Positions 1 through 5,240 of a DNA stretch of 9,632 nucleotides are shown here, in pieces. The notes beneath the pieces were generated by a model that had not been told where the DNA came from, searched no databases, and worked only from the letters and a program-made list of their open reading frames with translations. Origin of the DNA: a virus. Taxonomy: Duplodnaviria; Heunggongvirae; Uroviricota; Caudoviricetes. How positions within the stretch are numbered: the stretch's first letter is position 1; the number at the start of each line of letters is the position of its first letter. Location: the IMG/VR virus record IMGVR_UViG_2600254997_000008; one strand, written 5' to 3'. The translations under genes and the position numbers were made by a program.

Positions 1-240
1 CTGAGCGAGAGAAGAGGCCAGTGACACAAGGCGTCGTGTACGACGCGGATCACCGAGACGGGCATGTCCAAACTGCTCGTTAGCCCATGAATAACAATCA
101 GAAAGTACCATAACAGACCCGAAGAAAATGAAATATAAGAGAAGATCAACGGGTGAGGAAAAAGTTCAAAAAATCGCTGCCGGGGAGGAAGGAAACTACC
201 GGATGGAAAGAGTCCCCCTAAAGCAGACTGACAGACATCA

Positions 241-262
241 CAAATCCCCGGGTGGGGATTTG
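241..262. repeat. Perfect palindrome: 9-bp stem CAAATCCCC / GGGGATTTG around a 4-nt centre GGGT
   Basis: Read directly from the sequence at 241-262. Not followed by a U-run on either strand, so not a typical intrinsic terminator. Lies immediately inside the IS50-like terminal sequence. Confidence 0.5.
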
Positions 263-276
263 TGTATAAGAGACAG
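258..276 (-). mobile_element. IS50/Tn5-like terminal inverted-repeat-like 19-mer (minus strand CTGTCTCTTATACACAAAT)
   Basis: From memory, the 19-mer matches the IS50 outside end (CTGACTCTTATACACAAGT) and the Tn5 mosaic end (CTGTCTCTTATACACATCT) at 17/19 positions each. It sits exactly where stf homology ends. The other end and any target-site duplication are outside the window. Confidence 0.3.
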
Positions 277-1054
277 CTTTGGCCCGGGAGGTCCCACCAC
301 GGTGGGGATTCGGTTTACGGCGTCTTCCGCCGCTATCCTGCTTTGTTCCGCTGACTGTGCGCTTTCTGCTGACTCCCGGGCTTTTTCTGCTGCGGTCGTT
401 GCATCCCTGGATGCATTACCGGCTGCACTTTCTGCCGTCTTTCTTGACAATTCAGCTTCTGCTGCACTTTGTGATGACTCACTGGCTTTTTGAGCGGCCG
501 CAGAAGCCGAGGACGAGGACGCATCCTCTGACTGCTTTGCTGAGGCTGCACTTTCCGTCGCCTGCCGGGCTGACTCCGATGCATCCCCTGCAGAAGTCTC
601 AGCATTTACTGCACTCTTTTCCGCCTGGCCGGCTGATATACCCGCATTCCTCGCTGACGTCTCTGCCTCTCCGGCATTCTTCTTCGCCTCCTCAGCGTGA
701 CGCGCTGCCTCTTCCACCATCAGTTCAAAACGTCGCAGTGCCTCCGGACGGGCATCATCCTCCGTCATGGCACCGAGAAAATCATTCAGCGTACCGGGTT
801 GAGAATCTTCATACACGGTGATGGTCCCGGCATGTGACGGCGGGAATCCCTCCACCAACAGAATAACGCTGTACTGACCGTACTCAACGTCCATACTGTA
901 ACGCCCGGCTTCATCCGGATTTTCTGAGGCCAGCGTGTTCACCACCACAGTGGTACTGTTACGTTTTGCTTTCAGCTGGATTGTGCAGTTCTGTACCGGT
1001 TTTCCTGTGCCGTCTTTCAGTACACCTGAAATCTTTACTGCCATATTCACCCCA

Positions 1055-1081
1055 CAAAAAAGCCCGCCTGAACCGGCGGGC
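1055..1081 (-). terminator. Rho-independent terminator-like hairpin between lom and stf
   Basis: On the minus strand: 8-bp GC-rich stem AGCCCGCC / GGCGGGCT with a 6-nt loop, followed by a run of six T (plus-strand A-run at 1055-1060). Lies downstream of the lom stop at 1109. Confidence 0.5.
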
Positions 1082-1108
1082 TGTCATAACACTGTGTTAC
1101 CTGGCTAA

Positions 1109-1708
1109 TCAGAATTTATAACCGACACCCACGATGAAACCGTCAGTGCGCCAGTCACCACTGCCGGAGCCTTCATAAGCAATATCAATGGCCACGGATT
1201 CGGTCGGGTTAAACTGCACGCCAGCCCCCCACGCCAGAGACGTGTTGCTGTGGCGACCGTCATCACTTCCGGTCAGCACATCGTGCGTTTTCCCCTTGTT
1301 GTCAGTTACGCGGAGATAATCCCCGGAGAAAGTCGACACACGGCTGTAAGCCACACCCGCCATCGCATACGCGCTGAACCATTCATTCACGCGCACAGAC
1401 GGCCCCGCCATCACGCTGAACCAGCGGTTACGCACGGAATCTTCATGCCAGCGGGTATCGCTGTAACGGGTAAGCTGGCGATTCTTGTCTCCTGCATAGC
1501 TGAATGACGTCACCAGCCCCAGCGTGTCCGTAAATTCATAACGGTATTTCACGTTAATCCCGTTAAGATTATCGCTACCGGGAGCGTTCGTCCGGGCATG
1601 AAGATACCCCGCGCTCAGTGTGGACTGATGTTCAGACGCCCATGCAGGCGCACCGGATACGGACAGACAGATGGCTGCGGACAAAATGGCTGCACAAACT
1701 TTACGCAT
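1109..1708 (-). CDS. lom: Outer-membrane beta-barrel protein Lom (Ail/Lom/OmpX family), a lysogenic-conversion moron
   Basis: 199-aa ORF. N-terminal signal peptide [25 protein letters not shown]-terminus ...[24 protein letters not shown] matches lambda Lom and ends in the aromatic residue typical of outer-membrane barrels. Sits between J and stf as in lambda. Shine-Dalgarno GAGAGG lies about 6 nt upstream of the ATG at 1706-1708. Confidence 0.85.
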
Positions 1709-1732
1709 AATTACCTCTCGCTTTTCTGCAAT

Positions 1733-1757
1733 AAAAAAGGCACCATTTCTGGTGCCC
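1733..1757 (-). terminator. Rho-independent terminator-like hairpin between J and lom
   Basis: On the minus strand: stem GGCACCA / TGGTGCC with loop GAAA, followed by TTTTTTATT (plus-strand A-run at 1733-1738). Lies downstream of the J stop at 1778 and upstream of the lom start. Confidence 0.5.
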
Positions 1758-1777
1758 TTATATGGGTTATAACAATT

Positions 1778-4700
1778 TCAACGAATACTGATGCCGGAAG
1801 CGGCTTTTTTGGTCACAATCACCGTACAGTCGGTGATATTACCTGCCCACTGATTGCCTTTATGGAAAACCTTAAACTCCAGAGTGACGCTTCCCCTGCC
1901 ACTCGGCATATCAATAACCGCACTGTAGCTACCGGGAATGGCCCCTTTAGTTTCTCTGGATGCGATTAATACACCGTTTTTGCGAACTTCAAAACCATAA
2001 CCCGTGTAACTTGTACCTCCCGGGTTATTACCACTTCCCGGATAGCTATACGCTATTCCGTTAAAGATAATGGGCGGAATAATGATTTGACGGTCAAAGT
2101 TATGATCATCGCTGATGGTGACTGTAACCGTCCCGTTTGGTGTTTCCGTGTTACCCCACGTACCAGCCTGTTTCGGAAATGATTTGGATACAGCTTTAAC
2201 GAAGTCACCTCTGACCTGAGTCGCCTCCAGCATGCCCTTAATCGTACAGTTTTCATTTACCGTGACGTTGTTGAGCGTCCCGGAGTTCGCATTCACGTTA
2301 CCGCTGATATCCGCATTTCTCGCCGTCAGCCGCCCGTCCGGTGTCAGGGAGAATGCCGGAGGATTACCGCCGCTGGTAATTGTTGGAGCCGTCAGATACT
2401 TCAGGAACACTTCGTTCATGAATATCTGGTTGCCCTGCGCCACAAACATCGGCGTTTCATTCCCGTTTGCCGGGTCAATAAACGCGATACGGTTAGCGGC
2501 AACCAGGAACTGGCTCAGTTTGCCTTCCTCCGTATCCTCCATGCTGAGGCCAAGCCCCGCGACATAATGCCTGCCGTCCTCGGTCTGCTCAATTTTGACG
2601 CCCCACATGGCATTCCATTTATCGTTGGCGTCCTTCCACTCTTTCGAAAACTCCTCCAGTTTGCTGGCGTTATCCTCCGTCAGCTCGACTTTTTCCAGCA
2701 GCTCCTTGCCGAGATGGGATTCGGTTATCTTGCCTTTGAAAAAATCCAGGTAACCTTCCGCATCATCGCTCGCCCGACCGACGGCCTCCACGAATGCCGA
2801 TTTGCCAACGGTGTTCACACTGCGAACGTAAAAATAATAATCATGGCCCGGCTTAATATTGATACTGGCGGCTATCCAGTACAGCGCCGTGCCAAGATAG
2901 CGCGCTGTGGTTTCAACCTGCCGGATATCGGCAATCCGCTTTTCCGAGAACCAGAACTCAAACTGTACCGTCGGATCATAAACCGCAAGATGCGGCGTGG
3001 CGGTTATCTGAAAATAGCCCGGCGTCAGCTCAATCCGCGACGGCGCTGCCGGTGCGGCAATCCGGAACGATACCGATGCCGGATCGCCCTGCTGTCCCCG
3101 GGCATTTACCGCCCGGACCTTCAGCGTGTAACGCCCCAGCGCCAGTTGCCTGAAGCGGTATGTGGTTTCCGTCGTCCGGGCCGTGCTGACCAGCCGCTCA
3201 CTGCCGTCATCCGCTGCCACGGTCAGGCGAAGCAGGAAACTCACGCCCTTCACCACCTTCGGCGTGTCCCAGCGGGCCAGTACCTGATACTCCCCGCTGT
3301 CTGCGGTGACTTCTGCGGTCAGATGCTGCACTGCTGGCGGCGTGACACCATTCACCGTGCCGCTCTGGTTACCGTCAAAGTGCGCCCCGTTATCCACGAT
3401 GGCCTCTTTTGCCGGCACATGCTGCACGGCAGTGATGGCATACGTGCCGTCATCGTTCTCACGGATACTCACACAGCGGAACAGGCGCTGACGCAACGTC
3501 GGCAACTTCAGCCCCCATACGCTGTATCCGGCAACGCCGTCAGGAACACGGCTCACTTTCACCTTCACGCCGTCGGTGACGGACTGGACCTCCACGCTCA
3601 CCGGATTACCCTGCCCGTCAACCAGGCTTATCAGCGTGGTGCCGGAGGATGGCAGCGTGATTTCACGGTCGAGCGTCAGCGTCCGGGGTCTGGCTGTTCA
3701 CCGCCAGCACGCGCCCGCCGGTGCTGATACCGGCATAGTCATCATCGCAGATTTCAATGACATCGCCCGGTACATGGCGAAGCCCTTCAGCACCCACGCT
3801 GAAGTCCACGGTCTGCGTTTCCAGCAGCTCCGTTTTAATCAGCCACAGCCCGGCGCGGTGTGCCTGCCCCCGACTGGTACAGCCAAAGGCATCCATCTTC
3901 GTGACGTTACGACCGTAACGGGCAATGGCCTGCGTGTCCTCCACAAGCTCCGTTGCCGTCTCCCAGCCGTTATCCGGGTCAGTCCAGTTCACCTCAACGG
4001 CATTATGGCGGTCCTTCAGGGCGCTGAAACTGTAGCGGAACGGCGCGCCATCATCCGGCATCACCACATTACTGCGGTTATAGGTCCACACCTTATCCGA
4101 TGGTCGGTCCTGCACGAACGTCAGCGTCTGCCCGTTCCATACCGGCATACAGCGCATCGCAGAGCAGAAATCACTGAGCACATCCCACGCCTTGCGCTGT
4201 GTGGTCAGGTACGCATTACAGGTGATGCGCGGCTCCGTGCCGCCAAAGCCGTCCGGCACTGACTGGTCGCAGTACTGGCCGATGACATACAGCGCCCATT
4301 TATCCACATCCGCCGCACCAAGACGTTTCCCCATGCCGTAGCGCGGATGGGTCAGCATATCCCACAGACACCAGGCCATGTTGTTGCTGTATGCCGGTTT
4401 AAACGTCCCGTCCCAGATACCGCTGTATTGCCGCGTCTGCGGGTTATAGTTCGACGGCACCTGCAGAATGCGCCCGCGAAGATTGATAAATTACGGCTTC
4501 ACCTGCTGGCTGCCGAACTGCTCCGAATCCACCTGCACGCCGACCAGTGCCGTGTTCCGGGTAGCAACTGTTTCACATCGATGATTTCGGTGTATGACGA
4601 CCAGAGCGTTTTGTTCTGCAGCTGGTCTGTGGTGCTGTCCGGCGTCATCCTGCGCATCCGGATATTAAACGGGCGCGGCGGCAGGTTACCCACCACCACC

Positions 4701-5210: not shown

Positions 5211-5240
5211 TAAACGACAAAACCGCCCGCAGGCGGTTTC
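5211..5240 (-). terminator. Stem-loop in the I-J intergenic gap, possibly a weak terminator or attenuator
   Basis: On the minus strand: 8-bp stem AAACCGCC / GGCGGTTT with loop TGCG, followed by TTTTGTCGTTTAT. Lies between the I stop (5258) and the J start (5197). Function is inferred from structure only. Confidence 0.3.

Follow-up and report, generated by a model that had tools for sequence, protein, structure and literature searches.

Terminator-type hairpins flanking lom in a lambda-like E. coli prophage: one apparently resident at the end of J, the other apparently carried by the lom cassette

The viral record IMGVR_UViG_2600254997_000008 (IMG/VR) supplies a stretch of 9,632 nucleotides (nt), referred to below as the window, from a lambda-like siphovirus resident in E. 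coli as a prophage. The distal tail genes H (tape measure), M, L, K, I, J, lom and stf follow one another there on the minus strand. The window is 95% identical to phage 434 across 9.3 kb and has prophage matches in 5051 of 5426 complete E. coli genomes; its lom region, matched in 230 phage records, shows 99.9% identity to phage cdtI and ~97% to phage 434. A prior reading made without database searches (the sequence-only reading) had pointed to G+C-rich hairpins followed by T-runs downstream of both J and lom, and had proposed that they isolate lom, a known moron in lambda, as a separate transcription unit inside the late tail operon. The hairpins are confirmed, and the interpretation placed on them finds partial support: comparative analysis argues that both hairpins are real, selected, terminator-type elements, of which the upstream one appears to belong to J and the downstream one to a lom cassette in which we recognize no promoter. 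The locus, read in the direction of transcription, is laid out as follows.

1778..3601, minus strand: 3′ part of J, encoding immunoglobulin (Ig)-like domains, a tail-tip fibre domain and a C-terminal receptor-binding domain of the 434 type; stop codon at 1780-1778
1733..1759, minus strand: hairpin 1, with stem 1759-1750/1745-1736, loop GAAA and a T6 run at 1738-1733
1709..1732, minus strand: lom leader, ATT followed by GCAGAAAAGCGAGAGGTAATT (21 nt), with the Shine-Dalgarno (SD) sequence GAGAGG at 1719-1714
1109..1708, minus strand: lom, 199 amino acids (aa), an eight-stranded outer-membrane β-barrel of the Ail/Lom family, phage 434/cdtI allele
1057..1729, minus strand: lom indel cassette of ~673 nt, comprising the 21-nt leader, a 600-nt open reading frame (ORF) and the 3′ untranslated region (UTR), which takes in hairpin 2 and the larger part of the T-run behind it
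1086..1100, minus strand: small hairpin GUAACAcagUGUUAU, AU-rich and immediately ahead of hairpin 2 within the lom 3′ UTR; conserved, lambda included
1055..1082, minus strand: hairpin 2, with stem AGCCCGCC/GGCGGGCT (1082-1075/1068-1061), loop GGTTCA and a T6 run at 1061-1056
1044-1042, minus strand: stf start codon (ATG), 11 nt past the hairpin 2 T-run, with the SD sequence GGGGTG between the two
277..1044, minus strand: N-terminal part of stf (side tail fibre; PF08400), whose homology to phage stf ends at 277

Both hairpins lie on the coding strand at the positions given by the sequence-only reading, and both have the anatomy of intrinsic terminators: G+C-rich stems within the ~5-14 bp range, loops of 3-8 nt, stable predicted folds, a T6 tract directly after each stem with no equivalent T-run on the opposite strand, and a sense orientation just past the stop codons of J and lom. 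In the 69-nt gap between J and lom, hairpin 1 begins 18 nt past the J stop codon and ends 24 nt ahead of the lom ATG (1708); its core stem GGCACC (1756-1751)/GGTGCC (1744-1739) is closed by A1750-T1745, and the 8-10 pairs can be extended to 10 (1759-1736). The gap between lom and stf measures 64 nt, and hairpin 2 begins in it 26 nt past the lom stop codon (1111-1109), with 8 pairs, 7 of them G-C, around a loop of 6 nt. Poor predicted stability, which would have counted against such elements, is not what folding returns: over the exact intervals proposed earlier hairpin 1 folds at -13.7 kcal/mol (z -3.5; -13.7 to -15.6 kcal/mol overall) and hairpin 2 at -17.2 kcal/mol (z -4.1), and for each only 1 of 200 shuffles folds equally well. 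A tool scan for terminator-like sites puts these two ahead of all others in the window. Under a strict definition applied to both strands (7 or more perfect pairs, 4 or more of them G-C, a loop of 3-8 nt and T5 or longer within 2 nt of the stem), they are moreover the only two sites in the entire 9.6 kb, both of them intergenic and on the coding strand, against a mean of 0.09 sites in 300 dinucleotide shuffles, 4 of which contain two or more. The pair is not a product of chance.

Evolutionary evidence for pairing comes from hairpin 1. Among 80 IMG/VR loci encoding Lom proteins 96-99% identical, all of which have both hairpins, its stem occurs as three main alleles, GGCACC/GGTGCC (the window's), GGCGTC/GACGCC and GGCGCC/GGCGCC, set apart from one another at two neighbouring pairs, where the changes are compensatory. 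Across the 16 distinct and closely related sequences that make up the covariation set, 96% of cells are paired, as compared with 30-68% when the partner column is slid; pairs 36-47 (G-C/A-U) and 37-46 (C-G/U-A) covary through G-U intermediates, so that two pairs have changed on both sides (10 cells), and none of 500 shuffles reaches the covariation score. The T-run is invariant among these sequences. Hairpin 2, with 99% of cells paired, is nearly invariant, and its changes are one-sided and G-U-compatible only. Three hairpin 1 variants look like DNA-level events: two loci (L005:1426-1500 and L050:1426-1500) show reciprocal arm combinations from different alleles, suggestive of crossovers inside the loop, with G-U/U-G intermediate pairs kept in L005 and two mismatches in L050, and in a third (L040:1426-1500) the loop is inverted from AGAAAT to ATTTCT. 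J-end alleles and hairpin 1 variants are, in addition, reshuffled among the IMG/VR loci.

The same two elements have been marked as terminators by independent curators in the GenBank records of phage 434 (OL657226; features 18940-18966 and 19615-19642 of OL657226.1) and Ayreon (MF807953), where the order is likewise J-lom-stf, the positions are the same, DNA identity is 97% and hairpins 1 and 2 are identical to those of the window; nothing material sets the window apart from these phages save that it is a decaying prophage, with stf cut by ISEc13 and frame breaks in J. The phage 434 record also places sense-strand terminators at the D|E gap, at the I|J gap and after tfa, and annotates no lom promoter. 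A permissive-threshold Rfam search of window positions 900-2000 finds no fitting RNA family, and its sub-threshold matches to ST7-AS1_2 and Trp_leader (E 0.12, overlapping the lom 3′ end and hairpin 2) were set aside as chance. The feature is thus ordinary, the layout common and already annotated in close relatives; what the present analysis adds is that the two hairpins have different owners, that hairpin 1 evolves by compensatory change and that the cassette is without a recognizable promoter. The division of ownership and the missing promoter are useful for thinking about lom regulation and about moron gain and loss, and carry little importance beyond good annotation.

Ownership can be read from loci in which lom is absent. 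A scan of IMG/VR for the hairpin 1 pattern returned 120 loci, of which 84 continue into an intact 199-aa lom and a few into a truncated one, while 14 are lom-less and run from the J stop codon through hairpin 1 to TTTTTTATT and then TGTGGAGTGAATATG, the stf ribosome-binding site and start. In five representative lom-less loci tblastn finds J and stf and does not find lom, and HK97 similarly has J followed by stf without lom. Since hairpin 1 stands unchanged at these J-hairpin 1-stf junctions, it is, as judged from sequence comparison, best described as terminator-like and resident at the J end rather than specific to lom. Hairpin 2, by contrast, lies inside the indel and is missing from the lom-less junctions, and it thus belongs to lom, as a putative terminator that travels with the cassette. 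The cassette itself is a genuine presence/absence unit between J and stf, with borders in or adjoining the two T-runs that can be moved by 1-2 T; the MAFFT gap was slightly misplaced here, and the match of TGTGGAGTGAATATGGCAGTA to window positions 1056-1036 was taken directly from the sequences. Insertion and deletion between the T-runs are equally compatible with the data, and the direction of the event cannot be told. In lom-plus and lom-less forms alike, a terminator-type hairpin stands within 11-14 nt ahead of stf.

Further rearrangements or insertions are seen at the J-lom junction: in L128 (hairpin at 14688-14711), L172 (735-758 and 3486-3509) and L202 (~2780, minus strand) unrelated DNA follows hairpin 1 or the lom leader, the switch being exemplified by ...GCAGAAAAGCGAGAGGTGTAACCGGCTC.... 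The 207-nt J-stf gap of HK97 (L093:4040-4170) has no homologue of hairpins 1 or 2; it holds only an unrelated, long inverted repeat, GGAAGGTGCGAATAAGT ... ACTTATTCGCACCTTCC, with arms ~70 nt apart.

Comparison with lambda (NC_001416; J 15505-18903, lom 18965-19585, orf-401/stf from 19650) extends this picture to a more distant lom allele. Gene order is the same, the leader is homologous and hairpin 2 is near-identical, with one G-C pair replaced by G-U and some loop changes; the upstream hairpin, on the other hand, is weaker and has an unrelated stem, CGUCCG-GGAA-CGGGCG, followed by UUUUAUUAU (U4AUUAU). A hairpin and U-run, with the T-run 28-30 nt ahead of the lom ATG, recur in three families of lom alleles whose proteins are only ~44% identical, and hairpin 2 is almost unchanged in the lambda and Stx2_KH16-043 Lom families.

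The gene flanked by these hairpins encodes a member of the Ail/Lom family. Lom matches PF06316 over its full length, residues 1-199 aligning to profile positions 1-199 with E 2.3e-121 and 403 bits (curated cut-off 23), is 100% identical to phage cdtI Lom and also matches the solved structures of lambda Lom, OmpX and Ail in the PDB. With lambda Lom it shares 44% identity. The sequence-only reading placed the divergence in the N-terminal half and the predicted loops; the loops hold up, and the extent was understated, as residues 1 to ~172 diverge and the last ~27 are identical. Alignments with OmpX and lambda Lom locate the least conserved stretches, together with indels where Lom exceeds OmpX, at residues ~34-49, 69-92 and 123-155, which we infer to be extracellular loops. 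At the DNA level the difference from lambda is a contiguous mosaic block (2250-1190, minus strand) of 40-70% identity between flanks of at least 90%, which takes in the receptor-binding domain of J together with hairpin 1 and the first ~172 codons of lom. One lom allele is nonetheless joined to at least three different J ends in the IMG/VR loci, so that linkage between J and lom alleles is not strict. PDB entry 9wso contains full-length lambda Lom (206 aa) as chain C of a complex, and the papers searched include none relevant to it.

A sigma-70 promoter serving lom, for which the interval 1709-1777 between J and the lom ATG had been singled out, did not emerge: the tool scan of that interval finds none. 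On a position weight matrix (PWM) scale where pR scores 13.0, pL 12.7 and pRM 9.2, the best candidate able to serve lom, TTCGTT-17-TATAAG, scores 2.7, and its transcript would start at the foot of hairpin 1. TTTATT-17-AATTAT (5.6) was rejected, as its -10 element overlaps the ATG and transcription would start within the ORF. The lom leader, invariant in related loci, is too short to hold a promoter. The comparison covered four loci of the J-lom type (the window, lambda, 2G7b and KH16-043) and two Stx podophages. Up to 400 nt upstream in the window the best sites score 6.4-7.0, among the weak candidates being TGGGCA-17-TACGGT, whose -10 hexamer starts at 1826 and ends 112 nt from the ATG; at the 3′ end of J in the four J-lom-type loci no site exceeds 7.8 and no candidate is common to all four. 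Inspection by eye near hairpin 1 brought up nothing convincing as a PhoP box or sigma-E-type promoter, and neither a promoter nor a terminator of lom is mapped in the papers searched. Any promoter that lom may have here would be non-consensus, activator-dependent or upstream of hairpin 1.

Whether lom qualifies as a moron in the sense developed for lambdoid phages (the Juhala/Hendrix concept; PMC3594210, PMC8065619) then receives a divided answer. It is present or absent among relatives at the same slot and has a terminator-type element of its own in hairpin 2; it has no promoter of its own that we can find, and no signature in base composition, with lom windows at 53-55% G+C compared with 53-57% for stf and 47-63% for J. 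The low-G+C stretch of the region is the J receptor-binding domain and not lom. Like lambdoid morons, then, the cassette is variably present at one late-region slot, with its own terminator and a product serving the host rather than the virion; unlike them, it lacks a findable promoter, is undistinctive in composition and has its upstream bracket outside the cassette.

The claim that the hairpins set lom apart as a transcription unit meets a further difficulty in a third hairpin of the same type.

5212..5239, minus strand: I|J hairpin, AAACCGCC-tgcg-GGCGGTTT with a U-rich tail, on the sense strand

The core of this element folds at -15.2 kcal/mol and its extended form at -24.0 kcal/mol (z -4.2). 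The phage 434 record annotates it as a terminator, and in HK97 and N15 the corresponding gap is marked with a putative one. In N15 a further putative terminator directly precedes the fibre gene, behind the accessory genes 22, 23 and cor. Hairpins therefore flank the essential gene J too, and bracketing alone does not define a separate transcription unit. The position of stf leads to the same conclusion: its ATG, 11 nt past the hairpin 2 T-run, leaves no room for a promoter, so that stf can be reached only by polymerase that has passed both hairpins. In the late operon of lambdoid phages Q-modified polymerase from pR′ passes downstream terminators (PMC8065619), and as late transcription must read through both hairpins, they cannot isolate lom within it. 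What stands of the separate-unit proposal is that terminator-type hairpins flank lom, that the cassette is real and that lambda lom is reported to be expressed in lysogens; against it count the fact that hairpin 1 is not lom-specific, the equivalent bracketing of J, the need for read-through into stf and the missing promoter. That hairpins flank lom does not by itself prove the gene to be an independent unit.

In light of these results we propose that hairpins 1 and 2 are Rho-independent terminators in the late tail operon, both on its sense strand, hairpin 1 being that of J and hairpin 2 that of the lom cassette, and that both would act on unmodified polymerase only. During lytic growth Q-modified polymerase from pR′ would pass hairpin 1, hairpin 2 and the I|J hairpin, as their anatomy and lambda biology suggest. 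In the lysogen hairpin 2 would end any lom transcript ahead of stf, and hairpin 1 would halt stray unmodified transcription leaving J. The promoter that drives lom, which in lambda is reported to be transcribed in lysogens (PMC7067206, PMC1151598), would lie outside the cassette. Taken as a whole, we consider this explanation likely. Several points nevertheless weigh against it. Termination at either hairpin is a prediction from sequence, and the missing lom promoter leaves the lysogenic unit that hairpin 2 would end undefined here. Hairpin 2 shows no two-sided compensatory change and is hence uninformative on covariation, and its conservation could partly reflect the high identity of the block formed by the lom 3′ end and stf. 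The sequences behind the hairpin 1 covariation are close relatives, so that the signal derives in part from a few alleles and not from many independent events, and L005 and L050 resemble crossovers within the loop. The allelic events in hairpin 1, though few, do point the same way.

Two rival RNA-level roles can be pictured. The hairpins might serve mainly as mRNA 3′-end stabilizers or processing barriers in the late transcript, shielding the J and lom segments from 3′ exonucleases after cleavage and so setting the ratios of J, Lom and Stf; similar hairpins do occur in every sizeable gap here (I|J, J|lom and lom|stf; in phage 434 also D|E and after tfa), and if Q-modified polymerase ignores terminators, selection on hairpin 1 needs another lytic payoff. 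A U-tract, however, would be superfluous for a stabilizer, and still every 434-type locus examined has the T6 unchanged behind the stem, with a T-run in other alleles as well (T4 and then ATTAT in lambda, T6 in KH16-043). The two roles can coexist, with the U-tract arguing for termination as at least a part, and we regard stabilization as the main function as unlikely. Alternatively, hairpin 1 may act as a leaky attenuator in a lom leader, with lom lacking its own promoter, lysogenic expression supplied by one or more weak promoters in the J 3′ end, and the hairpin setting or conditionally regulating the flow to lom. The 21-nt cassette leader, the lack of a promoter between hairpin 1 and the ATG, the restriction of weak candidates such as TGGGCA-17-TACGGT to the region upstream of hairpin 1 and the selection on that hairpin would all fit. 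Those upstream candidates, though, score 6-8 against 9-13 for real lambda promoters and none is common to the four loci, hairpin 1 is unchanged where lom is absent, and folding reveals no alternative antiterminator structure; conditional or fixed attenuation of this kind strikes us as distinctly improbable. A broader version starts from the cassette, which would carry a terminator without a promoter; because the indel borders fall in or adjoin both T-runs, the T-runs of intrinsic terminators in the distal late operon would be where such cassettes dock and are excised. Expression of lom in lysogens would then come through leakage past hairpin 1 from weak J promoters, and hairpin 1 would tune the amount of Lom as an attenuator rather than act as an insulator. 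We hold this version, too, to be doubtful.

It is also conceivable that the hairpins have no role in RNA at all and are conserved DNA joints at module borders kept by mosaic recombination, or chance occurrences. Borders of the lom indel in or next to the T-runs, the crossover-like arrangements in L005 and L050, the inverted loop of L040 and the reshuffling of J ends with hairpin variants speak for DNA-level exchange at these sites. Chance is excluded by the strict scan and its shuffles, and a mere DNA joint would be hard to reconcile with compensatory changes that preserve Watson-Crick or G-U pairing, with two hairpins that are both in sense orientation and have their U-tract on the sense strand only, or with the hairpin and U-run that lambda has at the same spot in an unrelated stem sequence. 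We accordingly judge this last possibility very improbable indeed, and retain intrinsic termination, with separate owners for the two hairpins, as the most likely reading of the locus.

A related arrangement is found in Stx podophages of the 933W/phi24B type (e.g., NC_004913), whose lom also belongs to the Ail/Lom family and is followed ~40 nt downstream by a strong terminator-like hairpin, as in the window. There the gene occupies another genomic slot behind an AT-rich upstream region of ~90 nt without a hairpin, the terminator is a different one (ACCCGC...GCGGGT and T6) and the protein is ~40% identical over 75% of its length. In the two podophage loci examined the sense-strand hairpin and T6 lie ~25-45 nt downstream of lom (L087:1278-1330 and L088:1269-1320). 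Only the Stx1 phage (L087) has a better promoter-like match in its AT-rich upstream region, a site of PWM 9.7 located 59 nt upstream of the lom ATG; PhiR5_2 (L088) has no comparable site there. In phi24B lom expression is reported to be uncoupled from induction (PMC3342100). A study of phi24B small RNAs (PMC4426718) found no Rho-independent terminator in the region downstream of lom, in a search presumably aimed at the opposite-strand 24B_1 transcript. A link to 24B_1, which maps downstream of lom, was considered and rejected, as lambda-type phages are stated to lack that region and the context differs.

Damage to the neighbouring genes leaves lom an intact accessory cassette amid broken tail genes, consistent with lom being, as is generally accepted, a gene that benefits the host. 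Window positions 1-276 are the end of the IS4-family element ISEc13, 100% identical to many E. coli copies, with the terminal sequence TGTGTATAAGAGACAG at 261-276 and the junction at 276/277; the element is inserted in stf after ~256 codons, so that the side tail fibre gene is disrupted while the adjoining lom is intact. J (5197-1778, minus strand) is broken into three ORFs (5197-4499, 4460-3663 and 3601-1778) because of six single-base insertions relative to phage 434 J, at 4567, 4558, 4499, 4490, 4484 and 3688, all of them in short homopolymer runs, as would suit either a decaying pseudogene or homopolymer sequencing errors.

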